This document shows, piece after piece, positions 39,402-57,698 of a DNA stretch of 64,000 nucleotides. The stretch lies in NCBI GenBank assembly GCA_035524335.1, contig DATKPE010000003.1, positions 2,902 through 66,901 of the forward strand, written 5' to 3'. A program made the position numbers and the translations under genes. The notes under the pieces are model-generated. The model was not told the DNA's origin. It was given only the letters and a program-made list of their open reading frames with translations, and ran no database searches. Numbering within the stretch: position 1 is the first letter of the stretch; each line of letters opens with the position of its first letter. This stretch comes from Bacteroidota bacterium. GTDB taxonomy: Bacteria; Bacteroidota; Ignavibacteria; UBA10030; SZUA-254.

Positions 39402-40208
39402 TCATCCCGGATTCCGGCCGTACTTGACGGCAATCAGCTGGGCCGCGATGCTGACGGCGATTTCTTCGGGAGTATGCGAGCCGATGGAAATTCCCACCGG
39501 GGCGAAGACCGGTGCGAGCAGTTTCCGGTCGATTCCGTCCGCGAGGAGCCGGTCGAAGAGTTCCCGGACCTTTTTCGCACTGCCGAGGAGTCCAAGATAC
39601 CGGCACTCTTTGCCGAGGCAGGCCCGGATAGCCTGTTCATCATACTTGTGCCCGTGTGTCATGATGACGATGAAGGTCTCCGGAGAAAATTCGATATGTT
39701 CTGCGATATCGCGGATAGGGGTACAGACGGTGCGGGAGGCGCCCGGATGTTTTTGTGCCGTCGACCACTCCTCCCGGTCGTCGAGCACCGTGACGGTGAA
39801 ACCGCACCGAGATGCGAGCGATGAAAGAGCGGCGCCGCAGTGTCCGCCGCCGACGATGTACAGCGGCGCTCCGGTGAACAGCGGCTCGATGAGAATTTCC
39901 TGCCATCCTCCGCACACCATGCCGGTCTTCTCGGCATCCGCGCCGCCGTCGCCAAGATCATAGCACCAATGCGCAAGCAGAGCCGGCCGTTCCCGCATGA
40001 TCCGGTCGATGACTCTGCGTTCGATCTCCCCGCCTCCCACGGTCCCCGCGCGCCGTCCCGTCCGGTCGACGATCATCTTCATGCCCGGTTCCACCGGCGT
40101 TGAACCGTCTGTCGCAATGACCGTCGCGATCCAGACCGGCGTCCGCCGGAGTTCCGCGTCGGCGAGCAGGCCGTAGAACGCCGCCGGGCCGCTTCCGTCA
40201 TCAATCAT
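39402..40208 (-). CDS. xdhC: XdhC/CoxI-family molybdenum-hydroxylase maturation (Mo-cofactor insertion/sulfuration) protein
   Basis: Track ORF trimmed to ATG 40208 (MIDDGSGPAAFYGLL), 10 nt after the mocA stop. An N-terminal XdhC_CoxI-like segment (VIATDGSTPVEPGMKM) is followed by a Rossmann segment (LYIVGGGHCGAALSSLASRCGFTVTVLDDREEW). Confidence 0.8.
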   Translation of the reverse strand: MIDDGSGPAAFYGLLADAELRRTPVWIATVIATDGSTPVEPGMKMIVDRTGRRAGTVGGGEIERRVIDRIMRERPALLAHWCYDLGDGGADAEKTGMVCGGWQEILIEPLFTGAPLYIVGGGHCGAALSSLASRCGFTVTVLDDREEWSTAQKHPGASRTVCTPIRDIAEHIEFSPETFIVIMTHGHKYDEQAIRACLGKECRYLGLLGSAKKVRELFDRLLADGIDRKLLAPVFAPVGISIGSHTPEEIAVSIAAQLIAVKYGRNPG

Positions 40209-40218
40209 ATCATGCCTC

Positions 40219-40818
40219 TCATCGTTCGACAGCAGTATTGAACCTGGCCGCATCGGCCGGTGAGTTGAGGTTTCCGAGAATGCCGATGTCCCTGCAGGCG
40301 GTGTAGCAGATCTCCGATCCCGTTCCATGCAGTACATCCTTCAGCCGAAGGCCCTTGTCCGCCCGCAGTATCCGGGCAAAGAGATTCCGGGGAATCACGA
40401 TCGGATGACCAGCCTGACGGTTCAGCGAGGGAATGATGACTGCCTCCGGCCGCAGAGCCGATTTGTGCAGGAGCAGCTCATAGGTGGCCGGCGCCACGAG
40501 CGGATGATCGACCGGTATCAGGATCACCTTCTGCTTGCCGGCAAAATGAGCGAGGCCGACTTGCACGGAGGAGAGCATTCCGGATTCGGGCGACGGATTG
40601 ACGGCGACCGGAAGATTCGGGAAGGTATCCGCGATCCAGTCCGTGTCGGCCGGTCTCAGAATACAGATCAGGTCCGTCACGCCGGCTGCGGCAACCGCGT
40701 CGGTGATCCGTTCAATGAAATAGACGCCCCCCGCCTTCATCCGTACTTTCGGGGTGCCCATGCGGGCGCCGTTGCCGGCCGCAAGAACGATGGCTCCGAC
40801 CGATCCTGTCCCGGTCAT
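40219..40818 (-). CDS. mocA: MobA-like nucleotidyltransferase, MocA-type molybdenum cofactor cytidylyltransferase
   Basis: 199 aa. The N-terminal AIVLAAGNGARMGTPKV motif matches the NTP_transf_3/MocA family. ATGA overlap with the upstream PLP-enzyme gene. Confidence 0.75.
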   Translation of the reverse strand: MTGTGSVGAIVLAAGNGARMGTPKVRMKAGGVYFIERITDAVAAAGVTDLICILRPADTDWIADTFPNLPVAVNPSPESGMLSSVQVGLAHFAGKQKVILIPVDHPLVAPATYELLLHKSALRPEAVIIPSLNRQAGHPIVIPRNLFARILRADKGLRLKDVLHGTGSEICYTACRDIGILGNLNSPADAARFNTAVER

Positions 40819-42275
40819 CCGCCGGACCCTGTACGCCTGTTGAATTCACCGATCATGCTTTCAATCCGGGCGGATTCATTCACAAACACATCGTGCCAGA
40901 ATTCGGGCGACCATTGGCGGTTCAATTCCTCCAGCGATTTTCCCTGCTGTTCCACCCACGTATAGTATTTGAGATTGTGAATCGCCTTCCGATCATAATA
41001 CCCGAGTTCCCGGAAAAAGTCAATCCTCTGGTGAAGAAGAGCCGCACCGTGATCGGCGGCGGCGTGCATGAGGGAATAGTTCCCTTTCTCGCCGCGCAGT
41101 TCCAGAAGCCGGGAACCGTACATCTCCGTCGAATCGGTAAAAATGGTAAAAATAACGTCCTGCGGTCCAAGCTCGTAATATCGCGCGGTTTTTATCGCCG
41201 CAAGCAGGTTGCCTATCCCCGAGATGCCAAGGAGCGGCAGGTTCGGGAGTATGGATGGATTGACGCCGATGGAGGTGAGGTACCGGACTCCCTCCGGTTC
41301 ATTGAAGAGCCGGAGAACCCTCATGCAATCCTCGTCGTCCACCGCCGCGATGCAGTCGGTATTCCGGACATTGTGGACCCAGGGCACATGTTTGTCCCCG
41401 ATGCCCTCGATCCGGTGTGCGCCGAATCCGTTCATCAGAAGCGTCGGGCACTGAAGCGCTTCCGCGGCCACGACCTGCAGGCGGGGAAACTGCATTTTCA
41501 GATAATCGCCTGCGGCAATGGTGCCGGCGGAACCGGTGGCGGAGACGAATGCCGCCGGTGAAGCCGACACCCCGCGGAGAGAGCGGAAAACCTCCTCCAC
41601 CGCAGGACCGGTGACATTGTAATGAAAGATCGGATTGCCGAATTCCTCGAATTGATTGAAGATGACATTCCGGGGATCTTCCTTCAGTTCCCAGCACTTG
41701 TCGTATATCTCCTTCACGTTCGATTCGCAACCGGGGGTCGCGATCACCTCGGCGCCGATCTTTTTCAGCCATTCGAACCGTTCCTTCGACATCTGTTCGG
41801 GAAGGATCGCGATCGGCGTGCACCCGAGCACCGCGCAGTCGAACGCACCGCCCCGGCAGTAATTGCCGGTGGAGGGCCAGACCGCTTTATGGACAGCGGG
41901 ATCGAACTCGCCCGATACCAGCCGGGGCACCAGACATCCGAACGCAGCCCCCACCTTGTGCGCACCGGTGGGAAAATATTTTCCGACCAGGCCGATGATC
42001 CGGGCCGGGACGCCGGTGATCGAGGAGGGAATTTCGAGCTGATTGACACTCCCGAATCCGCCGGTCGCAATATCGTTCTTCCAGGTGATGCGGAAAAGAT
42101 TCAGCGGGTCGACATCCCACAGACCGATGCGGGACAGTTTCGCCACGAGGCCGGGGGGCAGGCTTCCGGGGTCGCGCATCTGCCGGAAGGTCGGGATCGT
42201 GATGCCCCGTTCGCGGCACCGGGCCGCGGTTCGTGCGATGACGGCGTCGCGCGCCGATTGACTGACTACTGCCAT
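40815..42275 (-). CDS. Atypically long (486 aa) fold-type-II PLP-dependent enzyme (Trp-synthase-beta/cysteine-synthase superfamily), function unknown
   Basis: The candidate PLP-lysine block YFPTGAHKVGAAFG is TrpB-like (TGAHK). STGNYCRGGAFDCAVLGC is followed by a GSAGT-like loop (ATGSAGTIAAG). An N-terminal extension of about 100 aa and a C-terminal extension of about 130 aa surround the core. Strong SD (GGAGAGAGGAGAG) upstream. Confidence 0.6.
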   Translation of the reverse strand: MAVVSQSARDAVIARTAARCRERGITIPTFRQMRDPGSLPPGLVAKLSRIGLWDVDPLNLFRITWKNDIATGGFGSVNQLEIPSSITGVPARIIGLVGKYFPTGAHKVGAAFGCLVPRLVSGEFDPAVHKAVWPSTGNYCRGGAFDCAVLGCTPIAILPEQMSKERFEWLKKIGAEVIATPGCESNVKEIYDKCWELKEDPRNVIFNQFEEFGNPIFHYNVTGPAVEEVFRSLRGVSASPAAFVSATGSAGTIAAGDYLKMQFPRLQVVAAEALQCPTLLMNGFGAHRIEGIGDKHVPWVHNVRNTDCIAAVDDEDCMRVLRLFNEPEGVRYLTSIGVNPSILPNLPLLGISGIGNLLAAIKTARYYELGPQDVIFTIFTDSTEMYGSRLLELRGEKGNYSLMHAAADHGAALLHQRIDFFRELGYYDRKAIHNLKYYTWVEQQGKSLEELNRQWSPEFWHDVFVNESARIESMIGEFNRRTGSGG

Positions 42276-42293: not shown

Positions 42294-43463
42294 TTAACGT
42301 GTGACAGCGTGCCGGAGGAACGATCCGACATCCTTTTTCCGCGACATCAGGATCATCGCGGCGATGACGAACGGCTTGAAGCTTGCCTCACGGTACGTGG
42401 CAAGCCGGTAGCGTTCGAAGACATTCTTCGCGACCTCTCCCTGGGCACAGCTCACGCCCGAAATATCGGCAGGCAGACAGTGCATATAGAGCGCATTCCC
42501 GCCTGCGGTCAGCCGCATCCGGCTGTCGGTACATTCCCAGGAGGTATATCGCGCATTGTTCGCAAGACACTCCTTCTCCAGCGCGGCAAGCCCCGTCTTG
42601 TCCGATTTTTTCAGCAGTTCGGTTCTCCGTTCCATGACCTGCAGGGGCGCCCACGATTTCGGATAGACGATGTCTGCATTCCGGAAGGCGTCCTCCATCG
42701 TCGGCGCGATCTCGAATGTTCCCCCGCTTGCCGGAGCCTGCCGGCGCGCACGCTCCACGACATCGGGGAGCAGGTCATACCCCGGTGGCGCCGCCAGGGA
42801 AACGTGCATGCCGAATCGCGTCATCAGCCCGATGATCCCCTGCGGCACCGAGAGCGGCTTGCCGTAACTCGGCGAATATGCCCAGGTCATGGCGATCTTT
42901 TTTCCCCGGAGCGCCTCCGCGGATCCGAAATGCGTGATGAGGTGGACGAGGTCTGCCATGGCCTGTGTCGGATGATCGATATCGCACTGAAGATTGATGA
43001 CGGTCGGCCGCTGGTGCAGCACGCCTGCGTCGTATCCCTCGCCGACGGCGTCACTGACCTCGCGCATGTAGGAATTGCCCTCCCCCAGATACATATCATC
43101 CCGGATGCCGATCACCTCGGTCAGAAACGAGATCATATTCGCGGTCTCCCGCACGGTCTCGCCGTGGGAGATCTGCGACTTTTCCTCGTCCAGATCTGCG
43201 AGCGCAAGTCCCAGCGCGTTGACGGCAGATGCGAAGCTGAAGCGGGTCCGGGTCGATTTGTCCCTGAAGACCGATATCGCGAGACCTGTGTCGTAGAGCC
43301 GGAATGATTTGCCGTGCCGGTGCATTTCGCTCAATATTTCCGCGAGCAGGGCGAGGGTGCGGATATCCTCATCCGACTTGTCCCAGGTGAGAAGAAAGTC
43401 TTCTCCGAAACTGCCGGCGGGCGCGGGTTGACAGCGTTCAATAAGCGTGTGGAGATGGGTCAT
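42294..43463 (-). CDS. ygeW: YgeW-family knotted carbamoyltransferase
   Basis: 389 aa, collinear with E. coli YgeW as remembered. Matching blocks: DFLLTWDKS, ISVFRDKSTRTRFSFASA, HGETVRETANMISF, KKIAMTWAYSPSYGKPLSVPQGIIGLMTRFGM, YMHCLPADISGVSC. Confidence 0.9.
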   Translation of the reverse strand: MTHLHTLIERCQPAPAGSFGEDFLLTWDKSDEDIRTLALLAEILSEMHRHGKSFRLYDTGLAISVFRDKSTRTRFSFASAVNALGLALADLDEEKSQISHGETVRETANMISFLTEVIGIRDDMYLGEGNSYMREVSDAVGEGYDAGVLHQRPTVINLQCDIDHPTQAMADLVHLITHFGSAEALRGKKIAMTWAYSPSYGKPLSVPQGIIGLMTRFGMHVSLAAPPGYDLLPDVVERARRQAPASGGTFEIAPTMEDAFRNADIVYPKSWAPLQVMERRTELLKKSDKTGLAALEKECLANNARYTSWECTDSRMRLTAGGNALYMHCLPADISGVSCAQGEVAKNVFERYRLATYREASFKPFVIAAMILMSRKKDVGSFLRHAVTR

Positions 43464-43472: not shown

Positions 43473-43967
43473 TCATGAATTGAAGGAATGGGAACGGAGC
43501 GCGTGCTCCTGATAGTACGGGATCACCGACTCGACGGCATCGACGATCTGCTGGTATCCGGTACAGCGGCAGAGATTGCCGTAGAGGGCACGGCGGATCT
43601 GATCACGGGTCGGGTTCGGATGCCGGAGAAGAAACGCATGCGCCGTCAGGATCATTCCGGGCGTGCAGAACCCGCATTGGACGGCTCCGGCCGAGATAAA
43701 CGCCTCCTGAAGCGGGTGGAGCGTACCGTCGGTCCGGGCCATACCCTCGATGGTAAGGATTTCAGCGCCCTCCACCTCGGCAAGGCGGCGGGTGCAGATT
43801 TTCATCGGCTCGTCGTTGATGAGGATGGTACAGGCGCCGCAGGCGCCGATATCGCACGCATTTTTGGTGCCCGTCAGACCGAGATCTTCCCGGAGAAAAT
43901 CGACCAGACGTTTTCCGGCGAGTGTTTCGTCGGCAAAGACGGTTTTTCCGTTCACGGAAAATTTCAT
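43473..43967 (-). CDS. [2Fe-2S]-binding small subunit of a molybdenum hydroxylase (CoxS/XdhC-Ecoli type)
   Basis: 164 aa. Plant-type cluster motif CDIGACGACTILIN and second cluster motif CRCTGYQQI. ATGA overlap with the Mo-subunit gene. Confidence 0.9.
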   Translation of the reverse strand: MKFSVNGKTVFADETLAGKRLVDFLREDLGLTGTKNACDIGACGACTILINDEPMKICTRRLAEVEGAEILTIEGMARTDGTLHPLQEAFISAGAVQCGFCTPGMILTAHAFLLRHPNPTRDQIRRALYGNLCRCTGYQQIVDAVESVIPYYQEHALRSHSFNS

Positions 43968-46255
43968 GCCTGCACCTCCTCCCGCCGGGGAACCTTCGTC
44001 TGGACCGGAAACCGGATCGGCAGACTGTAGAACCGCCGGCCGGTCGCATTGCAGACCGCGTTGGCGATTGCCGGCGCCATGATTTCATTTGCCGGTTCAC
44101 CCAGACTCTTCGCGCCGGAGGGCGATACCGGATCGTGATTCTCGATGATGATCGCCTTCATCGGCGGAAGATCCAGCGTGCGGGATATCCGGTAGGTGTT
44201 GAGATTTCTGTTGGCGATGATGCCATTGTCGGATTTGACTTCTTCGTGCAGTGCGTAGCCGATGCTCATGGCCATACCGCCATAAATCTGTCCGAGCACC
44301 ATCTCCCGGTTCACCGCCCTGCCGATATCGTGTGCGGCGACCGCATTGAGAAGCCGGATTTTGCCGGTTGTCCTGTTCACCGTCAGTTCGACGGCCTGAC
44401 AGCCGTAGACCCAGGTGAAATATGCCTTTCCCTGGCCGGTATGCTCATCCCACGTCACCTGCGGCGCGCGGTAGACGCCGAGAGCGTACGGAAACTGCTG
44501 ATGACTGTACATATAGGCGATCGCCTCGCTAAAGGAGACCGATTCGCCGTTCGCGGCGCGGACTCTTCCCCCGGAAAATGTGACTCCCTCCGGAACAGTC
44601 GACAGCTGTTCAGCCACCGACCGCGCGATCGTCCGCTTCAGCTCCGCTGCGGCCTGACACACCGCTCCCCCGCCCATGATCGTCCCCCGCGAAGCGACCG
44701 TGGTGCCGCTGTCGGGTATGACGGATGTCGACGACCTGCGGTACCGGATCGTATCCGCCGGGATCCCGAGCTCCTCCGCGAGGAGCAGGATCATCGCCGT
44801 TTCAGATCCCTGTCCGTTTTCATGGACGCCCGCCTCCAGGATGACGGAGCCGTCGGCCTGCACGTTGACGATCGCTGCGCAGAAATCGACTCCCTCGGCA
44901 CCCAGACTGACTCCCCGGTAGCTCATTGCGAGCCCGATGCCGTACATCTCCTCCTCCGTTCCCTCCCCGCGGGTCGCCCGCTTGAGCTTCGTCTCATAAT
45001 CAATCTCTTTCAGAACCGCATCGAGCACCTGACCCATCGCAACAGTGTGGGTATCGAGCTTCTGGCCCGTGATGGTGACGCTGTTCTGCTTCACCATGTT
45101 GAGTTTCCGGAACGCCACCGCCGACATGCCGAGTTTTTCCGCCGCAAGCTCCACCATCTGCTCGACGACGAAATTCATCTGCGGCGATCCGAAGCCTCGC
45201 ATCGCGCCGGTCACGACATTGTTCGTGTAGACGCCGGTCGTATCGCATTGGACGTTCCCGACCACGTACGGACCACAGCACTGCACCGTCGACCTCCAGG
45301 TCACCCAGGGAGTCACCGAGCAATACGCACCTCCGTCTGCCACAATGGTGCATCTGACAGCCGTGATTTTTCCCGATCTGGTCACCCCCATCGCATAATG
45401 GACTTTATAGGGGTGCCGCTTGTAGCTCTCCCGGATCGACCAGTCCCGCGTATATCTGATTTTCACCGGCCTGCCGGTAAGTCTCGCCGCGAGTGCGGCA
45501 CGTGCGCAGACCACGGCGGCGGTGTCATCCTTGCCGCCGAACCCGCCGCCCAGCGGCGTACCGACGATCTCGATATCGGCAAGCGGTACGCCCAGACACG
45601 CCGCGGTGAAACGCCGTGTGCTGAACGGATGCTGCATACTGCCGTATATTTCGATAACTCCGTCTCCCCGCGGTATGGCGACGGCCACCTCCGTTTCCAT
45701 GTACGCATGCTCGACGAACTGCGTCTGAAAATCGTGCTCGAGGATGACATCGGCCTCCCGCATTCCCCGTTCGGCATCCCCCCTGCGGACCCTGTGCGTG
45801 TTGATGACGTTCGATCCGTGCTGTTCGTGAATGAGCGGTGCGCCGGGGGCCAGTGCATCGGTCGGATCCAGCACCCGCGGGAGGGGCTCCGCATCGAGAC
45901 GGACGTATTTCGCGGCCTGCATCGCGGCTTCGCGCGATTCCGCCACGACCACGGCGATCACGTCACCGTTATATCTGATTTTGTCGTCCGCAAAGATCCT
46001 GTAATCGCGGATGATCTGCCCGACCCGGTTGGAACCGGGAACATCCCGCGCGGTCAGAACACGCACGACGCCGGGGCATCGTTCCGCCTCCGCCGTTTCG
46101 ATCGACCGGATCCTGGCGTGCACTTCGTCGCTGTACACCGGAACCGCATGCAGGAGATCCGCAAAATGCAGATCGTCCGTAAACTTCGCCGCACCGGTCA
46201 CTTTGGCCCGCACGTCATTGCGCCAGCCTGAATTGGTCAACCCGGACATAACCAT
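43964..46255 (-). CDS. Molybdopterin-binding large subunit of a xanthine-dehydrogenase-family hydroxylase (no FAD subunit adjacent)
   Basis: 763 aa. KVTGAAKFTDD N-terminus, with GGGFGGKDD, MRGFGSPQ and PSGAKSLGEP blocks. The start is ATG 46255 or 46249, overlapping the hyuA-like stop by 13-19 nt. Confidence 0.85.
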   Translation of the reverse strand: MVMSGLTNSGWRNDVRAKVTGAAKFTDDLHFADLLHAVPVYSDEVHARIRSIETAEAERCPGVVRVLTARDVPGSNRVGQIIRDYRIFADDKIRYNGDVIAVVVAESREAAMQAAKYVRLDAEPLPRVLDPTDALAPGAPLIHEQHGSNVINTHRVRRGDAERGMREADVILEHDFQTQFVEHAYMETEVAVAIPRGDGVIEIYGSMQHPFSTRRFTAACLGVPLADIEIVGTPLGGGFGGKDDTAAVVCARAALAARLTGRPVKIRYTRDWSIRESYKRHPYKVHYAMGVTRSGKITAVRCTIVADGGAYCSVTPWVTWRSTVQCCGPYVVGNVQCDTTGVYTNNVVTGAMRGFGSPQMNFVVEQMVELAAEKLGMSAVAFRKLNMVKQNSVTITGQKLDTHTVAMGQVLDAVLKEIDYETKLKRATRGEGTEEEMYGIGLAMSYRGVSLGAEGVDFCAAIVNVQADGSVILEAGVHENGQGSETAMILLLAEELGIPADTIRYRRSSTSVIPDSGTTVASRGTIMGGGAVCQAAAELKRTIARSVAEQLSTVPEGVTFSGGRVRAANGESVSFSEAIAYMYSHQQFPYALGVYRAPQVTWDEHTGQGKAYFTWVYGCQAVELTVNRTTGKIRLLNAVAAHDIGRAVNREMVLGQIYGGMAMSIGYALHEEVKSDNGIIANRNLNTYRISRTLDLPPMKAIIIENHDPVSPSGAKSLGEPANEIMAPAIANAVCNATGRRFYSLPIRFPVQTKVPRREEVQA

Positions 46256-48829: not shown

Positions 48830-50038
48830 TCAGATCTTTCCGTTCATCCTGGCAATAAACGCCGCATAGAATGAAGAAGCGGCGCTCAGGTGTTCGACGG
48901 GGCAGGCCTCGTTCGCCGCATGGGCGTAGACTTCATTACCCGGCCCGAGACCGAAACAGGGAATCCCGTGCATACCGGCAATGGCGACCCCGTTCGTGCT
49001 GAAGGTCCATTTGCCGACGACCGGTTCGCGCCCGATCGTCGCGCGGTACGCCTCGACTGCCTGCCGCAGATAGGGGGACGATTCCTCCATCACCCATGTG
49101 GGAAAGTATTTCTCCGTCTGATAGACTTTGCCGGTGTAGGCACGTTCAGCATACGTCAGGACGGAGACCTGGGCGTCGGGGTAGCCGGCCGTCCGGGCTG
49201 CGGCCTGAACTTCCGCGATGGCGCTTTCCTTCGTTTCGCCCGCGGTCAGCCGGCGGTCCAGATGAATGCCGGCACCGTCGGGGACGGCGCACAGCGAGGG
49301 GGACGACGAGACCGATTCCGTCACGGTGACGGTTCCCTTGCCGAGGAACGGATCGGACCGCAGACGTTCATTCAGTTTTTCGATCTCGAGCGCGATGCGC
49401 GCGATTTTGTAGATCGCGTTATCCCCCCGTTCGGGTGCGGAGCCGTGACAGCTTTTTCCCTTCACATCGACGTGCATCTCCATTCTGCCGCGATGTCCGC
49501 GGTAAATGTTGAGATTCGTCGGCTCCGTGATGATGACAAGCTCCGGCCGGAGGCGCTCTTCTTTGATGAGATACTGCCAGCAGAGCCCGTCACAATCCTC
49601 CTCCATGACGGTGCCGGTCAGGTAGACCGAAAACTGATCGTTCAAATTCAGTTCCTTCACGAGCGAGGCGGCGCTGATCATGCAGGCCATCCCCCCCTTC
49701 TGGTCGACCGTCCCCCTTCCCCAGATTTTTCCTTCCGCCACTTTCGGGACGAAGGGATTCGAATGCCACTGATCCAGATCGCCGGGATAGACCGTATCGA
49801 TGTGCGCATCGAACGCGATGGCTCTCGGTCCACGACCGATCCGCCCGATGATGCTTCCCAGGCCGTCGATCCTGATCTCTTCCACCCCCGCCCGTTCCAT
49901 TTCACGCCGGATCACGTCGACGACATCCTTTTCCTTGCCGGAAAACGACTGCGTTTTCACGAGCTCGGATAAAATCCGCACCGTCTCGGGCTCCTGCTCC
50001 TTTGCACGCCGCTGAATATTCTGATAGAGAGTCTCCAT
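48830..50038 (-). CDS. ygeY: YgeY-family M20 metallohydrolase
   Basis: 402 aa, collinear with E. coli YgeY as remembered. Matching blocks: AFDAHIDTV, GRGTVDQKGGMA, GTVMEEDCDGLCWQY, YRGHRGRMEMHVDVKGKSCHGSAPERGDNAIYK, KWTFSTNGV. Confidence 0.9.
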   Translation of the reverse strand: METLYQNIQRRAKEQEPETVRILSELVKTQSFSGKEKDVVDVIRREMERAGVEEIRIDGLGSIIGRIGRGPRAIAFDAHIDTVYPGDLDQWHSNPFVPKVAEGKIWGRGTVDQKGGMACMISAASLVKELNLNDQFSVYLTGTVMEEDCDGLCWQYLIKEERLRPELVIITEPTNLNIYRGHRGRMEMHVDVKGKSCHGSAPERGDNAIYKIARIALEIEKLNERLRSDPFLGKGTVTVTESVSSSPSLCAVPDGAGIHLDRRLTAGETKESAIAEVQAAARTAGYPDAQVSVLTYAERAYTGKVYQTEKYFPTWVMEESSPYLRQAVEAYRATIGREPVVGKWTFSTNGVAIAGMHGIPCFGLGPGNEVYAHAANEACPVEHLSAASSFYAAFIARMNGKI

Positions 50039-51403: not shown

Positions 51404-53905
51404 TCATCCCTCCCTGAACACCGACAGTTCCGCCCGGGATCTCGGTCTCATCGCGATCGCGCCCGAAAAACATTTCTGTGCACAGAGCGAACAGCCGACA
51501 CAGAGAGACGGATCGAACTCCGGGACGATGCGCCGGTTCATCGTGATCGCGAGATAGGGACAGCGCGCGCAGTTTCCGCAGTGACAGCAGAGACTCTCCG
51601 TCACGGCCGGGATCGTCCTGGTGGCCGGAAGCATGTCGAAAGGAATGATCGGCTGGGGAAGGGACGAACCGATGAGATCTCCGACCGACGCATATCCACG
51701 GGCATGGAGAAAATGGCTGAGACCGGAGTGCAGTTCATCGACGATCCCGAGGCCGTATTTCATCACGATGGTACAGCACTGCACCGTTTCAGCTCCCAGG
51801 GCGAGGAGCCGTGCCGCTCCTCTGTAATCCATGACCCCGCCGTTTGCTGAAATCGGGACACCGAGCCCCGATGCCTTCGCAACCACGAGGCTGGTTATCG
51901 GGAGAACACCTTCACCGGACATGCCGATGACGACTCCCTCCTCCCGCGCACCGTTCCCCTGCGTGCGGTAGGCCATCGCCGGAAAACTGTTCGCCAGTGT
52001 GATGCCGGCCTTTTTGCCCGGATATTTGCGGAGGACGTCCGCGATTGCCGTCACGATCGGCCCGATCGCCGTCACCGCACCTGTCAGCTTGAAGAGCTTG
52101 GGAATCTCCGGATCGCCCGATTCCATGACCCACCCGACAATCCGGGCTGTCAGCTCCGCATCCTGCGAGACCATGTCACCCTTCGTTCCGTCTCCCCCCT
52201 GAGGGCAGGAGAGGCTGTACTCGACTCCCATCGCACCGGCCCGTTCCAGCTTCGCGGTGTTCGCCTGCCAGACGCGGCGATCGGCTGTCTCACGGCCGCT
52301 CACCGGTCCGCCGGTCGAACCGAGGGTCAGGCGGTCGGGATATTCTCTGACAAGCCGTTCAATTTCACGGCAAACCCTGTCGAGCTGATGTCCCGAAACG
52401 TTGTCGCAGTTTCCGTACGTGGACGGCGCGAGAACGTACATGTATTCGGAGGGAATGTGAATGGGGACCCTGTCGAATGCGGTTTTCATCACTCCGCCCG
52501 CCCAGCCGCGTTCATAGGCGGCGCGCATCTGTGCATACCCGTCGGTATGCGGCGCGGCGGAAAGAAGGAACGGCGACGCAATCGCTTTTCCAAAAAACTT
52601 TGTCGTCAGACCGACCGGAAGCCCGGAAACACCTTCCATGATGACGGGCGCCGGTGCGGAATTGCACGGGCGTTTCTTTGCGGTGCCTCTCAGATACCTG
52701 TCGGCACAATCAGCCGCCTTCTTCCCTGATGCCACCGCTTCAACGACCGTTGAGGATTCTCCTGTGAGATCTCCCGCGTAAAACAGTCCCGGGGTTTTCT
52801 GCCTCGCCGTCCGGGAAACCGCGCCTATCGCGGTAATCACAATATCGAATTCCCGGAAATACGGCGGTTCTGCTTTCCGGGGGTGGAAATTTTCGGGGTG
52901 ATCTGACGCTCCCGGCCGGAGAGTAAGGTGTACAAGCCGGAGTCCGCGGACCTTCCTGCCTGCGCAGACAAGTTCCACCGGACGGGTACTGCCCGTCACT
53001 TCAATGTTCTCTTCGACCAGCATTTCCCGTTCGGCGGCGGTCAGAGGCATATTCAAAGGCCTCCGCCGGTAGATCAGCTCGACATGTGCGGCGCCGCGGC
53101 GCTTTGCGGTCACTGCACAATCGACCGCAACCGCGCCGCCCCCGATCACCGCCACCTTCAGGTTCCTTATTTTTCTCCGGTACTTCGGCGAAAGAAAAGT
53201 CTCCCATCCTATTGCTTTCCCGGCGCCGGGAATGTCCAGTCGAACCGGCTCCTCCTGACCGGATGCGATGATCACCGCTCTGCAGGAACTCCCCAGCATC
53301 CGCTCCGGGTGCCCGATCTTCTGAGCATACATGAATCTGACGCTACCAAGCGACCGGATGAATTCTATATCGGCATCGATGAACCCGCCGGCGAGACGAA
53401 AACCGGGAATGAGACGGGTCATGCCGCCGGCATGGTTCGATGTTTCATGAATTGTCACCGCATAGCCGCGACGGGTAAGAACCGCTGCGGCGGCAAGCCC
53501 TGCCGGACCGGCGCCGATGACCGCGACATTCTCCCCGTTCCCGGGAACAGACCCGACCCTGAGCGGACCAGCATTCCGGGCCCGGGTGATGATGGTCGCC
53601 TGGACCGCGGGAATTGCAACAGGAGTAGTAAAGCCGTTGTAGACACACGCCTTCATGCAGAACTGATCCGGACAGACGATGCCGCAGACAGTTCCCAGGG
53701 GATTCGCACCCAGAATCATCAGGGCCGACCGGCGAAAATCCGCCGCTGTGCCGCCGCGGGCCGCCATGATAAAATCGGCGGGGGAGCAGTGAGCCGGGCA
53801 TGCCTCCCGGCACGGCTTCTCCTCGCAATATTCACACTTCACCAGCTCAGCTTTCAGCTGTGCGTCGGTGAGAATTCCCGGAAGATGCGTCGGTTTTCTT
53901 GTCAC
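51404..53905 (-). CDS. Fused Fe-S flavoenzyme: GltD/PreT-like NAD(P)H-FAD module plus dihydropyrimidine-dehydrogenase/PreA-like TIM barrel plus 2x[4Fe-4S] ferredoxin tail (DPD/YgfK-like reductase)
   Basis: 833 aa. GTG start inside a GTGA overlap with the xdhB stop. The N-terminal Cys cluster is CEYCEEKPCREACPAHC. The two dinucleotide folds are VAVIGAGPAGLAAA and VAVIGGGAVAVDCA. The DPD-type active-site loop is YSLSCPQGGDG. The C-terminal clusters are CCHCGNCARCP and CVGCSLCAQKC. Confidence 0.8.
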   Translation of the reverse strand: MTRKPTHLPGILTDAQLKAELVKCEYCEEKPCREACPAHCSPADFIMAARGGTAADFRRSALMILGANPLGTVCGIVCPDQFCMKACVYNGFTTPVAIPAVQATIITRARNAGPLRVGSVPGNGENVAVIGAGPAGLAAAAVLTRRGYAVTIHETSNHAGGMTRLIPGFRLAGGFIDADIEFIRSLGSVRFMYAQKIGHPERMLGSSCRAVIIASGQEEPVRLDIPGAGKAIGWETFLSPKYRRKIRNLKVAVIGGGAVAVDCAVTAKRRGAAHVELIYRRRPLNMPLTAAEREMLVEENIEVTGSTRPVELVCAGRKVRGLRLVHLTLRPGASDHPENFHPRKAEPPYFREFDIVITAIGAVSRTARQKTPGLFYAGDLTGESSTVVEAVASGKKAADCADRYLRGTAKKRPCNSAPAPVIMEGVSGLPVGLTTKFFGKAIASPFLLSAAPHTDGYAQMRAAYERGWAGGVMKTAFDRVPIHIPSEYMYVLAPSTYGNCDNVSGHQLDRVCREIERLVREYPDRLTLGSTGGPVSGRETADRRVWQANTAKLERAGAMGVEYSLSCPQGGDGTKGDMVSQDAELTARIVGWVMESGDPEIPKLFKLTGAVTAIGPIVTAIADVLRKYPGKKAGITLANSFPAMAYRTQGNGAREEGVVIGMSGEGVLPITSLVVAKASGLGVPISANGGVMDYRGAARLLALGAETVQCCTIVMKYGLGIVDELHSGLSHFLHARGYASVGDLIGSSLPQPIIPFDMLPATRTIPAVTESLCCHCGNCARCPYLAITMNRRIVPEFDPSLCVGCSLCAQKCFSGAIAMRPRSRAELSVFREG

Positions 53906-56241
53906 GGCAGGATCCTTCTCCCGATGATCGATGGTCCCTGAAGATGTTCCACCGCCGCAAGTATCACTTCGTTGGTCGCAGGGAGTGAAAACGGGGGCTC
54001 TTCGGTTCCGTTTCCCGCTGACGCGACGGCATCCTTGATCGCCAGCCAGACGGACAATGCCAGCATGAGCGGCGGCTCGCCGACAGCCTTGCTGTTGAAA
54101 ATCGTCCCGGTGTTCGGCACGCCGGACAGGAGTTCGACATGGAACTCCTTCGGGATGCTCCGGATGGTCGGGATCTTGTACGTATCAGGAGAATGGGTCA
54201 GAAGCTGGCCCCCTGCGTCCCACACGATCTCCTCCGTCGTACACCACCCCACCCCCTGAACAAATCCACCCTGCACCTGGCCCATGTCGATGCCGGGATT
54301 GATCGGATCTCCCGCGTCATGGACGATATCGGTGCGAAGCAGTGTATGACCGCCGGTCAGAAGATCAACCTCCACCTCGCTCACCGCGGCGCCATACGCG
54401 AAGTAATGGAACGGATTCCCTTTTCCCCTGATTTTATCCCATCCGATCGACGGGGTTCTGTAGTATCCGGCCGCACTCAGGCTTATCTGCCGCCGGTACA
54501 GCAGGTCAACCACCTCCGGAAACGCCATCGTACGATCGGGGTGGTCCGCATCGGTCACTGTGTTGAGTTTGAAGCGGAGCGCCGGCGGATGCGACGGAAG
54601 GTCAGGATGCAATTCGGTAAAATACCGCGCCAGTTCCGCCGACATCCGGTCCCTGATCGCCGCAACCGCTTCAGCGACCGCCATTCCGTTCAGATCGGCC
54701 CCGGATGATGCCGCCGTCGCCGAGGTATTCGGTACTTTGGACGTATCGGTCGGTCCGACCGTCACCCGCGCCGGGTCGATGCCGAAACACTCCGCGGCGA
54801 TCTGTCGGATTTTTGTGTGCAGTCCCTGCCCCATCTCCGTTCCGCCGTGGGAGACAAGCACGGTGCCGTCTGCATAGACGTGGACAAGCGCGCCCGCCTG
54901 GTTCAGGAAGGTCGTGGTGAATGAGATGCCGAATTTCACCGGCGTCAGGGCGAGCCCGCGCTTCACAAACCTGTGCGCGGCGTTGAACGCGGCAAGTCCC
55001 TTCCGTCTTTCCCGGTACCGGGAAGAGACCAGAAGGCGATCCACAATAAGCGGAAGCCGGTTGTCGCGGACGGGCTGTTCGTAGGGAGTCAGATGGCGGG
55101 GCGGGGAAGCGTAAAAATTCCGGAGCCGGACGTCAAGAGGATCCTTCCCGAGCGTGCGCGCAATTCTGTCGAGGATCGTTTCAATGACCGCCATACCCTG
55201 GGGCCCGCCGAAACCCCGGAATGCGGTGTTCGAAGGATGGTTGGTTTTCCAGACCCGGGCAGTGATCTCCACGGCGGGAAGAAAGTAGGCGTTGTCGCAG
55301 TGGAGCATGGCGCGCTCCATGATCGCGAAGGAGAGATCGGTTGCCATCCCGGCGTCGCTGTTTAATTCCATCCGAACGGCGAGAAGCGTTCCCTCTTCAT
55401 CGAATCCGGCCGCATACCGGGCAAGAAACGGATGCCGTTTGCCCGTGATGCACATATCATCATCCCGGTTGAGGCGAATTTTGACCGGCGCACCGCAGGC
55501 ATTGCTCAGGAGCGCGCTCCAGCACGCGACATGGTTGGCCTGTGTTTCCTTCCCGCCGAAACCGCCTCCCATCCTGCGAACCTCCACCGTCACGGCCGAC
55601 CGGGATATGCCGAGGACCTCCGCCACAAGCGCCTGCGTCTCGGATGGGTGCTGGGTGGAGCAGTAGAGGTGAAATGTCCTGTTCTCCCCGGGTATGCAGA
55701 GGGAGACCTGCGTCTCGAGGTACCAGTGCTCGGCGGCTCCGGTCCGGAGTTCGCCGCTGATATTCAGCGGAGCGGCATCCAGCGCGGCCGCAACATCACC
55801 GCGGCCCATTGTGCGGGGCGGGCCGAGAAGAGCGTCGTGTGCGACGGCCTCCTCAAAGGACAGAACCGGGGGCTCCGGCACATATTCCGCTGTAATCAGC
55901 CGCTCGGCCTCGCGGCATTGTGCGGACGTTTCGGCGGCGATGAGGAAGACCGCCTGACCGATACACGATACTCTCCCCTCGGCCAGACACGCTTCATCCT
56001 TCACCACCGGTCCCATCTGATTGTGCCCGGGAATATCGGATGCGGAAAGAACCGCATGGACTCCCTCCACCTTCCGCGCCGCGGTAAGATCGTACGACCG
56101 GAGCGTCCCGTTCGCGATGGGACTCGTCACCACCCGGCCGATAAGAGTTCGCTCCGTGAGCGGCAGATCGTCGACGAACCGGGCTTCCCCCGTGACATGC
56201 TGGCGTGAACTTTCGTGCGGCAGTGTCTGTCCGACGGTCAT
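53902..56241 (-). CDS. xdhB: Xanthine dehydrogenase molybdopterin-binding subunit (Rhodobacter XdhB type)
   Basis: 779 aa. HVTGEARFVDD N-terminus, with RRMGGGFGGKETQ, AFRGFGGPQGM and KAVGEPPLML blocks. Confidence 0.9.
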   Translation of the reverse strand: MTVGQTLPHESSRQHVTGEARFVDDLPLTERTLIGRVVTSPIANGTLRSYDLTAARKVEGVHAVLSASDIPGHNQMGPVVKDEACLAEGRVSCIGQAVFLIAAETSAQCREAERLITAEYVPEPPVLSFEEAVAHDALLGPPRTMGRGDVAAALDAAPLNISGELRTGAAEHWYLETQVSLCIPGENRTFHLYCSTQHPSETQALVAEVLGISRSAVTVEVRRMGGGFGGKETQANHVACWSALLSNACGAPVKIRLNRDDDMCITGKRHPFLARYAAGFDEEGTLLAVRMELNSDAGMATDLSFAIMERAMLHCDNAYFLPAVEITARVWKTNHPSNTAFRGFGGPQGMAVIETILDRIARTLGKDPLDVRLRNFYASPPRHLTPYEQPVRDNRLPLIVDRLLVSSRYRERRKGLAAFNAAHRFVKRGLALTPVKFGISFTTTFLNQAGALVHVYADGTVLVSHGGTEMGQGLHTKIRQIAAECFGIDPARVTVGPTDTSKVPNTSATAASSGADLNGMAVAEAVAAIRDRMSAELARYFTELHPDLPSHPPALRFKLNTVTDADHPDRTMAFPEVVDLLYRRQISLSAAGYYRTPSIGWDKIRGKGNPFHYFAYGAAVSEVEVDLLTGGHTLLRTDIVHDAGDPINPGIDMGQVQGGFVQGVGWCTTEEIVWDAGGQLLTHSPDTYKIPTIRSIPKEFHVELLSGVPNTGTIFNSKAVGEPPLMLALSVWLAIKDAVASAGNGTEEPPFSLPATNEVILAAVEHLQGPSIIGRRILP

Positions 56242-57698
56242 GATCGCATCCCTCCCGCCGCGACATGATCACTGTAGAATTTCAGCAGAAGATTGCGCGC
56301 CACCCGCGTCCGGAAGTGCGCCGATCCTCTCACGTCCGTCAACGGCCGGAACTCGTCCGCAAGCATTTCCATCGCTCCGGCGATCAGATCCTCCGAGAGA
56401 ATGTTTCCCTCGAGGACCGATTCGGCGGACCGTGCACGCCGGGGACGGTCATCCATTCCTCCATAGGCAAGGATCACACCCGAAACGTTCCCGCGCTCCG
56501 TCTGGCGGAATCGGACAGCACAACTTACAGCGGCGATATCGACATCGGGCCGGCGGGAAACCTTGTACCAGTACAGATGTTCGTCGGCGCCGGGCAGAGG
56601 CAGGACGACCGCCGTTACCAGTTCGGCGGCTCCGCGCGCCGTCTTCCGGTATCCGACGATGAATTGCTCAACCGGCACCCGACGCCTCCCGCCGCGACCG
56701 GCGAGTTCGACCTCCGCTCCGAGCGCGATGAGAAGCGGCACCGTGTCTCCAACGGGCGAGGCCGTCGACAGATTTCCCCCAAGCGTTGCAAGATTCCGGA
56801 TCTGATGGGAACCAAACGTCTCTGCCAGCGTTCGGAGAACCGGGATGACGTCTCCGGCATTTCGGGCGATCTCGTTGATCGTCATGCCGGCTCCCAGACG
56901 GAGAGAGTTCCCCTCCCTCCGCCACCCGTGAAGTTCCTCCACCGCCGAAAGATCCAGAATTACCGGTAACTGCTCGAATTTCTTGGTGACTCTCAGTGCG
57001 ACATCGGTGGCTCCGTTGATAATCACCGCCTCCGTCGTATCGGCGAGAAACGCAAGCGCCTCGGCGAGTGACGACGGGCGGGCGTATTTCCGGCCGCCGC
57101 TCTCGAGCAGGAGATTCCCGGCGTGGAGAGTCCGCAGGGACTCCAGGCAGGTCCGGTTTTCCTCAGCTTCGCTCACCGGGTCGTACCGCTCGTAGGCCTT
57201 CGCCACGCCGTTCAGGATCGACTGATAGCCGGTGCACCGGCAGAGATTTCCGACCAGAGCATCTTCCACCTCGGTCCTCGACGGGCGCGGATTGTTTTTC
57301 CAGAGATTGTAGAGCGACATCACTATCCCGGGGGTGCAGTATCCGCATTGACTGCCGTGGGAGTGCATGAGGGCGTCCTGCAGGGGATGAAGCTTCCCGC
57401 GCATGCGGGCAAGATATTCCACCGTCAGGAGAAGCCGACCGTGGAGCATCGGAAGAAACAGAAGACAGGAATTTACGGCGCGAAAGCGGATCTCCCGATC
57501 GGGGCCGATATCGGCAAGGACAACGGTACATGCCCCGCAGTCTCCTTCCGCACATCCCTCCTTCGTTCCGCGATACTCCGGGCATGAACGGAGATATTCC
57601 AGCACGGTCGTCGTCACCGTGTATCCTGCATCGTTCGGAAAGTCGATCCTTCGCGTTTCCCCGTTCAGGGAAAATATGACCGATCGTTCCGCGTTCAT
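56238..57698 (-). CDS. xdhA: Xanthine dehydrogenase small subunit (2x[2Fe-2S] plus FAD-binding domains, Rhodobacter XdhA type)
   Basis: 486 aa. Cluster motifs CAEGDCGACTV and CRCTGYQSI, followed by an FAD_binding_5-like domain (ATLGGNLSTASPVGD). SD gaaAGGAGGgag lies immediately upstream of ATG 57698. Confidence 0.9.
   Translation of the reverse strand: MNAERSVIFSLNGETRRIDFPNDAGYTVTTTVLEYLRSCPEYRGTKEGCAEGDCGACTVVLADIGPDREIRFRAVNSCLLFLPMLHGRLLLTVEYLARMRGKLHPLQDALMHSHGSQCGYCTPGIVMSLYNLWKNNPRPSRTEVEDALVGNLCRCTGYQSILNGVAKAYERYDPVSEAEENRTCLESLRTLHAGNLLLESGGRKYARPSSLAEALAFLADTTEAVIINGATDVALRVTKKFEQLPVILDLSAVEELHGWRREGNSLRLGAGMTINEIARNAGDVIPVLRTLAETFGSHQIRNLATLGGNLSTASPVGDTVPLLIALGAEVELAGRGGRRRVPVEQFIVGYRKTARGAAELVTAVVLPLPGADEHLYWYKVSRRPDVDIAAVSCAVRFRQTERGNVSGVILAYGGMDDRPRRARSAESVLEGNILSEDLIAGAMEMLADEFRPLTDVRGSAHFRTRVARNLLLKFYSDHVAAGGMRS

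Follow-up and report, generated by a model that had tools for sequence, protein, structure and literature searches.

A thirteen-gene operon from a Bacteroidota bacterium that probably encodes a variant of the reductive urate pathway

Gene content and layout of the operon

A 64,000-nucleotide stretch of a Bacteroidota contig (the window; assembly GCA_035524335.1, contig DATKPE010000003.1, positions 2,902 to 66,901) carries 13 consecutive minus-strand open reading frames (ORFs), running from 57698 down to 39402. Together they probably encode a variant of the reductive urate (2,8-dioxopurine) pathway, complete but for carbamate kinase, which would take oxopurines to pyruvate through enzymes whose activities we infer. 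The operon is a variant of a known pathway and not a new kind of system; what is new are two conserved families of pyridoxal phosphate (PLP) enzymes, a full-length putative ring reductase of the dihydropyrimidine dehydrogenase (DPD) type, and a maturation set for the molybdenum (Mo) cofactor that consists of XdhC and MocA without YqeB and YqeC. We took the curated NCBIfam cut-offs as the threshold for family membership, used Pfam cut-offs for domains, and compared the products by BLASTP with the annotated cluster region of Escherichia coli K-12. The genes, in transcription order, are listed with the scores that identify them.

56238–57698, minus strand: XdhA, xanthine dehydrogenase (XDH) small subunit with two [2Fe-2S] clusters and a flavin adenine dinucleotide (FAD) domain (TIGR02963 498.1, cut-off 467)
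53902–56241, minus strand: XdhB, xanthine dehydrogenase molybdopterin subunit (TIGR02965 1016.2, cut-off 849.5)
51404–53905, minus strand: 833-residue DPD-type Fe-S flavoenzyme (PreT–PreA fusion), proposed 2,8-dioxopurine reductase (Pfam domains and alignment with pig DPD)
50048–51403, minus strand: SsnA amidohydrolase, predicted to open the reduced pyrimidine ring (PRK07203 474.8, cut-off 444)
48830–50038, minus strand: YgeY M20 hydrolase, predicted to remove the second ureido group and give diaminopropionate (PRK13004 526.7, cut-off 321)
47589–48812, minus strand: ThrC-like PLP enzyme with an N-terminal CxxC...CxxC segment (Pfam PALP 240.7)
46237–47592, minus strand: HyuA-like cyclic amidohydrolase of the hydantoinase/dihydropyrimidinase family (TIGR02033 278.9, under its cut-off of 393)
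43964–46255, minus strand: large subunit of a second Mo hydroxylase, 763 residues (Pfam Ald_Xan_dh_C, MoCoBD_1 and MoCoBD_2)
43473–43967, minus strand: small subunit of the second Mo enzyme with two [2Fe-2S] clusters, 164 residues (all NCBIfam matches are [2Fe-2S] subunits, all below cut-off)
42294–43463, minus strand: YgeW knotted carbamoyltransferase, predicted to phosphorolyse a ureido group to carbamoyl phosphate (PRK07200 624.2, cut-off 453)
40815–42275, minus strand: CysK/CBS-fold PLP enzyme (CysK-like), 486 residues with additional helices at both termini, whose gene marks clusters of this type (cysK TIGR01139 109.9, cut-off 350.95)
40219–40818, minus strand: MocA-like NTP transferase, a molybdenum cofactor nucleotidylyltransferase (TIGR03310 92.7 against 186 and NF045665 112 against 315, both below)
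39402–40208, minus strand: XdhC-family Mo-cofactor insertion and maturation protein (Pfam XdhC_C and XdhC_CoxI; NF045664 217, below its cut-off of 350)

The original prediction, made from the sequence of the window, described a 13-gene minus-strand run with gaps of −19 to +18 nucleotides (nt), and the six-frame ORF listing and junction analysis bear this out. In transcription order the first junctions measure −4, −4, 0, +9, +17, −4, −19, −4, +9, +18 and −4 nt; the last, between the MocA-like and XdhC-like genes, is +10 nt with the ATG at 40208 as the start, the candidate with the more favourable upstream context, and −119 nt with the longest ORF start at 40337. The five stop–start overlaps of 4 nt in that prediction are all present, at 56238–41, 53902–05 (with a GTG start), 47589–92, 43964–67 and 40815–18. 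GC content is even across the operon (0.58–0.62) and thus gives no sign of an island.

Xanthine dehydrogenase and a second Mo hydroxylase

The first gene, xdhA, is preceded by the Shine–Dalgarno-like sequence GGAGGGAG. As predicted, the operon contains a Rhodobacter-type XdhAB: both subunits exceed the cut-offs of the corresponding equivalog models, and the XdhB motifs GGKE, FRGFG and GEPP are all present. These motifs presumably hold the counterparts of Glu802, Arg880 and Glu1261 of bovine xanthine oxidoreductase. Judged by its sequence, XdhB is a bona fide xanthine dehydrogenase. The likeness to the XdhAB(C) system of Rhodobacter capsulatus extends from the equivalog assignments and the conserved Glu/Arg/Glu motifs to the XdhC-family protein encoded in the operon, whereas the window enzyme differs in lying within a reductive catabolic operon beside a second Mo hydroxylase.

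The large subunit of this second enzyme falls below every NCBIfam equivalog cut-off and is 29% identical to E. coli XdhA and 28% to XdhD. Asp243, Arg353 and Glu720 occupy the positions of the XDH motifs, against Gln, Gln and Glu in E. coli XdhD. Among solved structures, the subunit is closest to R. capsulatus XdhB and a reductive dehydroxylase, 4-hydroxybenzoyl-CoA reductase. The small subunit is 45% identical to E. coli XdhC, and no FAD subunit for the enzyme is encoded in the operon. From its gene context, we propose the second Mo enzyme as a putative reductive urate 6-dehydroxylase, in the role of XdhD or the clostridial enzyme DOPDH. Its regiospecificity is not readable at the primary-structure level, because identity to XdhD is low and the active-site residues differ. 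We also considered Glu606 of XdhD, a feature proposed by Li et al., as a test, and set it aside: the residue lies in a loop with an XdhD insertion, where the alignment is too uncertain. In the aligned column, subject to that uncertainty, the window protein has Asp400, and Asp is found in 24 of 26 close homologues.

The operon ends with the two maturation genes. The XdhC-like protein is 31% identical to the N-terminal half of E. coli YqeB, and a six-frame search found neither YqeC nor a full-length YqeB in the window, in agreement with the predicted pairing of XdhC with MocA in place of YqeB/YqeC.

Proposed ring reductase, hydrolases and carbamoyltransferase

The 833-residue flavoenzyme has the full DPD architecture foreseen in the prediction of a PreT–PreA-type fusion. 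An N-terminal Fe-S domain is followed by FAD, NAD(P)H and flavin mononucleotide (FMN) barrel domains, the last with an LSCP motif, and by a C-terminal ferredoxin-like domain with two [4Fe-4S] clusters. The Pfam domains Fer4_20, Pyr_redox_2 and Fer4 score above their cut-offs and DHO_dh slightly under (23.2 against 27). Alignment with pig DPD, the best solved relative, gives three collinear stretches spanning DPD residues 74–996, and the LSCP motif (Cys567) is kept, which we take to be the motif of the catalytic Cys671 of pig DPD. The protein stays under all curated cut-offs, including those of PreA (NF006183, 182.6 against 335) and YgfK (TIGR03315, 123 against 835); no YgfK-type protein, which the original prediction named for this kind of cluster, is therefore present, and the reductase is of the DPD type. 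Its gene abuts ssnA with a gap of 0 nt and adjoins ssnA in other organisms as well. From this context we propose it as the 2,8-dioxopurine reductase, in the role of YgfK or UacX. Next to YgfK and UacX, which is without FAD, the full-length DPD-type protein would make a third type of ring reductase.

The signature genes hold up well, with SsnA, YgeY and YgeW all above family cut-offs. YgeW (62% identical to its E. coli counterpart) also exceeds TIGR03316 (599.8 against 500), and YgeY is 49% identical to E. coli YgeY. SsnA is 34% identical and borderline for TIGR03314 (454.9 against 455.5), and the HyuA-like protein is 32% identical to E. coli HyuA. YgeX, YqeA and YqeC have no counterpart in the BLASTP comparison.

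A proposed pathway from oxopurines to pyruvate

The original prediction called the enzymology of such clusters only partly resolved. This is out of date, because the reductive urate (2,8-dioxopurine) pathway was reconstituted in two 2025 studies with enzymes from E. coli, Clostridioides difficile and Clostridium sporogenes (PMC12507026; bioRxiv 10.1101/2025.04.24.650524). In the published order, urate gives 2,8-dioxopurine, its dihydro form, ureidomethylhydantoin, 2,3-diureidopropionate, a monoureide, diaminopropionate and finally pyruvate. Urate is converted to 2,8-dioxopurine by XdhD–YgfM or the clostridial DOPDH, and the ring is reduced by YgfK or, in C. difficile, by the PydA homologue UacX; SsnA then yields ureidomethylhydantoin and HyuA 2,3-diureidopropionate. 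YgeW uses phosphate to form carbamoyl phosphate and the monoureide, YgeY produces 2,3-diaminopropionate, and YgeX releases pyruvate and ammonia. Carbamate kinase, which harvests ATP, may be encoded elsewhere, and the Mo enzyme may be without an FAD subunit (PMC12507026; bioRxiv 10.1101/2025.04.24.650524). Gut strains with the cluster all carry YqeB/YqeC and SelD, and the C. sporogenes pathway needs selenium and SelD (2025 literature, including PMC12990295). The same literature reports the pathway as enriched in Bacillota and host-associated habitats and describes SsnA as a robust marker of the uricolytic cluster. The two PLP families of the window and the environmental phyla described below are mentioned in neither 2025 pathway paper, and Li et al. 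score any PF00291 neighbour as YgeX.

Set against this pathway, the second Mo enzyme gains a candidate role that had not been foreseen. XdhAB would convert hypoxanthine and xanthine to urate and pass the electrons to NAD+ through its FAD domain. The FAD-less Mo enzyme (763 + 164 residues), its cofactor matured by the MocA-like and XdhC-like proteins, would convert urate to 2,8-dioxopurine by reductive removal of its 6-oxo group, and the DPD-type flavoenzyme would drive reduction of the pyrimidine ring with NAD(P)H. SsnA would open the reduced ring to ureidomethylhydantoin and the HyuA-like hydrolase the hydantoin ring to 2,3-diureidopropionate. YgeW would then phosphorolyse one ureido group to carbamoyl phosphate, from which a carbamate kinase encoded elsewhere could make ATP, and YgeY would hydrolyse the other to leave 2,3-diaminopropionate. 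PLP-dependent β-elimination, with the ThrC-like protein as the main candidate lyase, would finally turn the C3 amino acid into pyruvate and ammonia. The analysis itself establishes which genes are present and in what order, their conservation in many phyla and the altered ThrC pocket described below. The roles suggested for SsnA, HyuA, YgeW and YgeY are carried over from the published biochemistry of orthologues; for the DPD-type reductase, the two PLP enzymes and the second Mo enzyme they come from context only. The predicted route from xanthine through urate to a C3 acid, ammonia and carbamoyl phosphate was broadly right.

Since oxidation of hypoxanthine to urate frees four electrons and conversion of urate to dihydro-2,8-dioxopurine takes up four, fermentation of hypoxanthine would be redox-neutral. 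Co-transcription of XdhAB with the reductive enzymes would let two two-electron oxidations feed two two-electron reductions.

YgeX and carbamate kinase are absent from the window, as predicted. For YgeX, tblastn with the E. coli protein and the diaminopropionate ammonia-lyase of a related locus (L070) found no homologue in the 64 kb, and no diaminopropionate ammonia-lyase model is among the eight NCBIfam matches of the CysK-like protein or the best 25 of 40 of the ThrC-like protein. The search for carbamate kinase elsewhere in the genome, proposed with the original prediction, covered the window and contig flanks of about 10 kb on each side; six-frame searches of the window with E. coli and related-locus queries found none, and neither did Pfam and NCBIfam scans of the remaining window ORFs and the flanks. 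A six-frame search of the window also found no transferase resembling aspartate carbamoyltransferase (ATCase).

Recurrence of the cluster across environmental phyla

The CysK-like protein is the best-conserved protein of the cluster and has more than 8000 database relatives, the best 120 of them 71–79% identical. A scan anchored on its gene, with one genome per species, confirmed loci in at least 583 species genomes, of which 80 were kept for detail; all 80 are metagenome-assembled genomes (MAGs). They come from Ignavibacteriota, Bacteroidota, Verrucomicrobiota, Acidobacteriota (Holophagae, Terriglobia and Thermoanaerobaculia), Myxococcota, KSB1, Cloacimonadota, Elusimicrobiota and others, and isolate names hint at groundwater, peat, lake and bioreactor samples. 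The best database matches of the operon proteins are likewise scattered over several phyla. A metagenome scan anchored instead on the ThrC-like protein returned, besides the source contig, just one short contig and one 25% match.

All 13 products of the operon, and the proteins of the E. coli cluster, were mapped onto the related loci. In 39 loci the CysK-like gene has 8 kb or more on each side; of these loci, YgeW is present in 36, the Mo large and Fe-S subunits in 32, SsnA, YgeY and the ThrC-like gene in 29 each, carbamate kinase in 9 and YgeX in 3. Carbamate kinase occurs in 15 related loci in all, YqeB/YqeC in only 3 of 86, and a Rhodobacter-type XdhB lies adjacent to the cluster in 11 surveyed loci. 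The gene set keeps a nearly unchanged order in Ignavibacteriae, Verrucomicrobiota, KSB1, Myxococcota and other phyla; L001, a contig from Ignavibacteriae, and L088, a genome of 4.6 Mb, match the window order one for one from the reductase to the CysK-like gene. The composition, which the original prediction took to be unusual, is therefore no one-off. Across the surveyed loci, the CysK-like gene lies directly after YgeW in 46 of 69 and the ThrC-like gene after YgeY in 21 of 38. The maturation set, with XdhC and MocA and without YqeB/YqeC, is apparently selenium-independent.

Variants of the arrangement are also found. Locus L003 has split PreT and PreA and an FAD-containing Mo enzyme, and a Holophagae/Thermoanaerobaculia version has YgfK, carbamate kinase, true YgeX, YqeB and YqeC. 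Elsewhere the set is divided into a reductase–SsnA–(YgeY)–ThrC-like part (L090, L091) and a HyuA–Mo–FeS–YgeW–CysK-like–MocA–XdhC part (L015, L033, L077, L081); the window operon is both sub-operons fused, with XdhAB in front. Locus L089 lacks YgeY as well as HyuA. Purine-related neighbours at related loci are xanthine permease, adenine deaminase and nucleoside hydrolase.

Two loci call for separate mention. At L088, a serine/threonine dehydratase of the IlvA type and a carbamate kinase are divergent from the operon, and an adenine deaminase and an NCS2 permease come right after it (2598–4796 and 18311–21227). The dehydratase, a 403-residue PALP gene product beside the kinase, was considered as a YgeX and turned out to be IlvA-type; it might point to a serine intermediate in this one case. 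At L070, in a Thermoanaerobaculia cluster, a 294-residue ORF between xanthine permease and HyuA (6512–7396) has no NCBIfam match.

The ThrC-like enzyme lacks the phosphate site of threonine synthases

With threonine synthases (ThrC; structures 1UIM from Thermus thermophilus and 2ZSJ from Aquifex) the ThrC-like protein shares the fold, the PLP motif SxKDR and a match of about 180 bits. Threonine synthases are its closest solved relatives (1e-51), and it passes TIGR00260 narrowly (181.5 against 167.1) and fails PRK08197 (234.8 against 303). We aligned it with four solved ThrCs and 44 cluster-linked homologues. Thr88, Asn154, Ser155, Arg160 and Asn188 (T. thermophilus numbering) are invariant in the four solved enzymes. 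We take these five residues, whose numbering fits 1UIM as aligned, to be the ThrC phosphate site for O-phosphohomoserine, roles that were reportedly described by Omi et al. in 2003. In the window protein they are replaced by Ala138, Thr204, Gly205, Thr210 and Asp239. Across the family the first position is Ala and the last Asp in 44 of 44 homologues, and the three between are Thr/Ser, Ala/Gly and Thr/Leu/Cys; the PLP lysine is kept. With all five phosphate-site residues replaced throughout, the ThrC-like protein is therefore not a threonine synthase, and it differs from ThrC in its catabolic context too. Its leaving-group pocket has shifted from cationic to neutral or acidic. Where a name is given, relatives are labelled ‘threonine synthase’ in JGI and NCBI annotation, which is probably a systematic misannotation, since the family is without the phosphate site.

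Its gene follows YgeY, the producer of diaminopropionate, and of the three loci whose diaminopropionate ammonia-lyase is genuine (PRK08206, 305; cut-off 276) two lack it, which argues that the ThrC-like protein stands in for YgeX. On this context we tentatively assign it as a diaminopropionate lyase, an assignment that we hold at slightly less than even confidence. As an alternative, it may eliminate urea from albizziin (β-ureidoalanine).

The CysK-like enzyme and the carbamoyltransferase step

The CysK-like protein shares with the CysK/CBS family the fold, the PLP lysine, the Asn loop, a Gln and a lid motif of the HxIxGIG type. It differs from that family in being only about 28% identical to solved relatives, in an invariant Cys140-Arg141 after the Asn loop, in its PLP motif (PTGAHKVGAA) and in a gene that is always in the purine cluster. 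It carries about 70 extra N-terminal and 90 extra C-terminal residues, where CysK and CysM normally have about 300 in all. Its AlphaFold2 model (predicted local distance difference test score, pLDDT, 78) matches O-acetylserine sulfhydrylases with a target-normalized Foldseek TM-score of about 0.8, and a search of the family profile against the PDB found nothing nearer than generic CysK/CBS, with which Foldseek agrees. Relatives go under the names ‘cysteine synthase (A)’ (JGI) and ‘pyridoxal-phosphate dependent enzyme’ (NCBI).

Invariant across 32 sequences from more than eight phyla are Lys107, the Schiff-base lysine in PTGAHK107VGAA; Asn138 of the carboxylate-binding loop STGN138; Cys140, Arg141 and Gln208; the phosphate loop; and Ser352. 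With these PLP and active-site residues invariant, the protein is in all likelihood catalytically active, its substrate being an α-amino acid that carries a β leaving group. Other members of the CysK/CBS family make and break C–N and C–O bonds at the alanine β-carbon; the diaminopropionate synthases SbnA and CmnB, together with DcsD, are β-replacement enzymes of this family.

The contexts of the gene point to the same end of the pathway. In two Terriglobia loci that have no Mo enzyme within 10 kb (L014 and L017), it is kept together with the ThrC-like gene, carbamate kinase and two carbamoyltransferases, one ATCase-like and one resembling ornithine carbamoyltransferase (OTCase). Persistence of both PLP enzymes with carbamoyltransferases in such Mo-free clusters places them at the ureido-amino-acid end. 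This five-gene module, seen at 10001–16334 of L014 and also in L017, has no SsnA or YgeY nearby and is flanked by unrelated genes; it may serve to scavenge diureido- or ureidopropionate, with a yield of two carbamoyl phosphates. At L020 (10001–16290), likewise without a Mo enzyme, the module of CysK-like, carbamoyltransferase, carbamate kinase and ThrC-like genes is joined to reductase–SsnA–YgeY. An ATCase-like second carbamoyltransferase occurs in 10 loci.

Three loci have a true YgeX as well as the CysK-like gene, so the CysK-like enzyme is not merely a YgeX substitute. The role that we prefer is a second β-elimination or a β-replacement on a β-N-substituted alanine from the carbamoyltransferase step, with albizziin, an aza-isostere of O-acetylserine, or one enantiomer of diaminopropionate as the candidate substrate. 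The phosphorolysis by YgeW is unfavourable (Li et al., 2025), and by consuming its product the CysK-like enzyme would pull it forward. The monoureide made by YgeW is albizziin according to Li et al. and 3-amino-2-ureidopropanoate according to Liu et al.

More broadly, the two PLP proteins could represent new activities, a CysK-like albizziin urea-lyase or β-replacement enzyme coupled to YgeW and a ThrC-derived diaminopropionate ammonia-lyase, that mark out an environmental branch of the pathway in need of no YgeX and probably of no selenium. We regard this combined proposal as speculative and rather unlikely to hold in full. If it is true, the substrate and stereochemical preferences of the PLP enzymes would show which of the ureido groups is removed by YgeW, and whether the intermediates have the D or the L configuration.

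Evidence against the assignment and alternative explanations

Several observations weigh against reading the operon as a urate pathway of this form. The second Mo subunit is just 28% identical to XdhD, with Asp/Arg/Glu in place of its Gln/Gln/Glu; the HyuA-like, DPD-type, MocA-like and XdhC-like proteins are all under curated cut-offs; and neither a carbamate kinase nor a nucleobase permease is found in the window or in the overlapping-contig flanks of about 10 kb. HyuA is absent from many otherwise complete related clusters (L003, L013, L019, L072, L011, L036, L041, L053 and L089). The coexistence of the CysK-like gene with a genuine YgeX at L046, L062 and L070, one of which also has the ThrC-like gene, makes it too simple to say that the two PLP enzymes replace YgeX. 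Finally, the albizziin reading fails if YgeW makes 3-amino-2-ureidopropanoate, as in Liu et al.: with no free α-amino group, that product cannot be a substrate of a CysK-type enzyme.

Another reading has a different or additional N-heterocycle as the substrate, with the second Mo enzyme acting as a purine or 8-oxopurine hydroxylase or on another oxo-heterocycle, so that both the entry point and the intermediates would depart from those of the published pathway. The Mo subunit is equally far from E. coli XdhA (29%) and XdhD (28%), scores about alike against 4-hydroxybenzoyl-CoA reductase and XDH, and departs from XdhD in its active-site residues, and HyuA is often missing from related clusters. 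We nevertheless consider this explanation improbable: SsnA and YgeW are close to characterized enzymes, SsnA being a robust uricolytic marker, and a urate-making XdhAB is co-transcribed here and adjacent in 11 related loci.

The position of the CysK-like gene, directly upstream of MocA and XdhC in the window and followed by MocA in 20 loci, raises the further possibility that its product is a maturation factor: a PLP enzyme of the cysteine desulfhydrase type that would provide the sulfide of the Mo=S ligand, act with the XdhC-like and MocA-like proteins and replace the YqeB/YqeC/SelD selenium system known from gut bacteria. YqeB/YqeC are indeed absent from the window and most related loci, and some enzymes of the CysK fold make H2S (the Foldseek matches Fn1220 and Fn1055). 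Yet at L014 and L017, where no Mo enzyme lies within 10 kb, the gene is kept beside carbamoyltransferases and carbamate kinase; the neighbour that it most often has is a carbamoyltransferase (46 of 69 loci); and at L046, L062 and L070 it lies about 7 kb from XdhC/YqeB/YqeC genes and coexists with them. The known Mo-cofactor sulfurases, moreover, are fold-type-I NifS-like enzymes. A maturation role is thus unlikely, and a catabolic role at the ureido end of the pathway remains the one that we prefer.

It is very unlikely that the core of the operon is a reductive pyrimidine (Pyd-type) pathway, in which the DPD-type enzyme would act on uracil or thymine, the HyuA-like protein and SsnA would be dihydropyrimidinases, YgeY a β-ureidopropionase, and the Mo enzymes a separate purine oxidation. 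The full DPD architecture of the reductase, with pig DPD as its best solved relative, the dihydropyrimidinase model as the top NCBIfam match of the HyuA-like protein, and the presence of carbamoyl-amino-acid hydrolases among M20 enzymes would all fit it. Against it, SsnA, YgeY and YgeW exceed the cut-offs of urate-cluster equivalogs, whereas the PreA and dihydropyrimidinase models are missed; a carbamoyltransferase, a second Mo enzyme and PLP lyases would be superfluous; a C. difficile PydA homologue has been shown to reduce 2,8-dioxopurine; and the cluster is conserved along with Mo enzymes and purine-related neighbours.

That the PLP genes are simply a biosynthetic threonine synthase and cysteine synthase sitting in the operon by chance, as public annotation names and the narrow TIGR00260 pass (181.5 against 167.1) might suggest, can be given next to no weight when all five residues of the ThrC phosphate site are exchanged in every one of the 44 homologues, the cysK model is far missed (110 against 351) by a 486-residue protein with extra domains, and both genes are conserved inside the catabolic cluster over many phyla.

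Comparison with known pathways

The nearest characterized relative is the E. coli uricolytic cluster (ygeW–ygeX–ygeY–hyuA–yqeA and ygfK–ssnA–ygfM–xdhD), with which the operon shares orthologue-level SsnA, YgeY and YgeW, a hydrolase of the HyuA family, and a Mo hydroxylase and Fe-S flavoenzyme reductase beside SsnA, with MocA and XDH nearby. Unlike that cluster, the window has no YgeX, YqeA, YqeB, YqeC, YgfM or YgfK, with the 833-residue DPD-type fusion instead of the last; its Mo enzyme, built of two subunits and without FAD, shares only 28% identity with XdhD; and a single 13-gene operon unites XdhAB with the rest, two additional PLP enzymes among them.

With the clostridial version (UacX and UacY of C. 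difficile; the DOPDH XdhAC of C. sporogenes) it has in common a PydA/DPD-homologous enzyme in place of YgfK (UacX being compared by description), an FAD-less Mo enzyme and the possibility of a carbamate kinase encoded elsewhere. UacX, however, is without the FAD/NAD(P)H module that the window reductase has. YgeX is retained in the clostridial clusters, which require selenium (SelD, YqeB/C), and C. difficile uses the hydrolase UacY for YgeW, whereas the window keeps YgeW.

The reductive pyrimidine pathway (PydA/DPD or PreT–PreA, PydB and PydC) follows the same logic with related enzyme families: a ring is reduced, opened hydrolytically and relieved of its ureido group. The proposed substrate of the window pathway is instead a bicyclic oxopurine with two rings and two ureido groups, and the operon adds Mo enzymes, a carbamoyltransferase and PLP lyases.

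Operon boundaries and genomic setting

Upstream of xdhA lies one further feature.

57699–58424, no strand assigned: divergent AT-rich intergenic region of 726 nt, presumed promoter and leader of the operon (sigma-70-like site; sequence read directly)

This region faces a divergent major facilitator superfamily (MFS) gene and contains a single sigma-70-like site on the minus strand, at 57925–57897. An Rfam scan of the whole window returned zero matches, and hence no purine or Mo-cofactor riboswitch in the leader. A sigma-54 promoter, an idea taken from YgeV-type regulation in E. coli, was rejected: the window has 11 matches where 16.8 are expected by chance, and the element about 80 nt upstream of xdhA (CGGCAC-N5-TTGT, 57794–57779, minus strand) is weak, with two mismatches.

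At the other end, a GH20 hexosaminidase gene (start candidates 39433, 39388 and 39364) and cutC follow on the same strand, and a terminator scan found no terminator-like site between them and the XdhC-like gene. The tight junctions support the predicted single expression unit, but its 3′ end at 39402 is a functional boundary and not a demonstrated transcriptional one. The GH20 β-hexosaminidase and cutC (36302–39433, minus strand) may be co-transcribed with the operon, though functionally unrelated.

About 3 kb downstream of the operon is a [NiFe]-hydrogenase maturation cluster (30310–36244, minus strand) of hypA, hypB, hypF, a gap at 32486–32779 that possibly holds hypC, hypD and hypE; HypF uses carbamoyl phosphate. 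The stretch from 2719 to 30021 encodes a GH13 amylase, a MalK-like ATP-binding cassette ATPase, GH31, an α-glucan phosphorylase, GT2, GH92 and a 1060-residue protein with a weak GH5 (cellulase) match, along with an isoaspartyl peptidase and an amino-acid permease. The best named relatives of the glucan phosphorylase are from Ignavibacteriales and Bacteroidota MAGs (63–70% identity). Contigs overlapping the window ends encode Por_Secre_tail proteins and a SusC-like TonB receptor. Together, the phosphorylase relatives, glycoside hydrolases, hyp genes and flank domains suggest an uncultured polysaccharide degrader from the Bacteroidota/Ignavibacteriota group that is facultatively or strictly anaerobic. 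Divergent from the operon are two MFS transporters (58425–61095, plus strand), the first of which is EntS/efflux-like and does not belong to the NCS2 nucleobase family; the window holds no dedicated purine or urate permease.

Implications of the proposed variant pathway

According to a commentary on the 2025 work, three questions still stand: the sequence in which the ureido groups are cleaved, the stereochemistry, and what donates electrons to the Mo enzyme (PMC12990295). A variant that splits the terminal steps between enzymes provides a handle on all three. If the Mo enzyme works without selenium, as we infer, the variant could be relevant to the engineering of uricolytic probiotics. The spread of the cluster through uncultured environmental phyla contrasts with the host-associated, Bacillota-centred picture in the literature, and since this cluster type is widespread in environmental lineages, reductive purine fermentation may be a common route of nitrogen and carbon recycling in anoxic environments.

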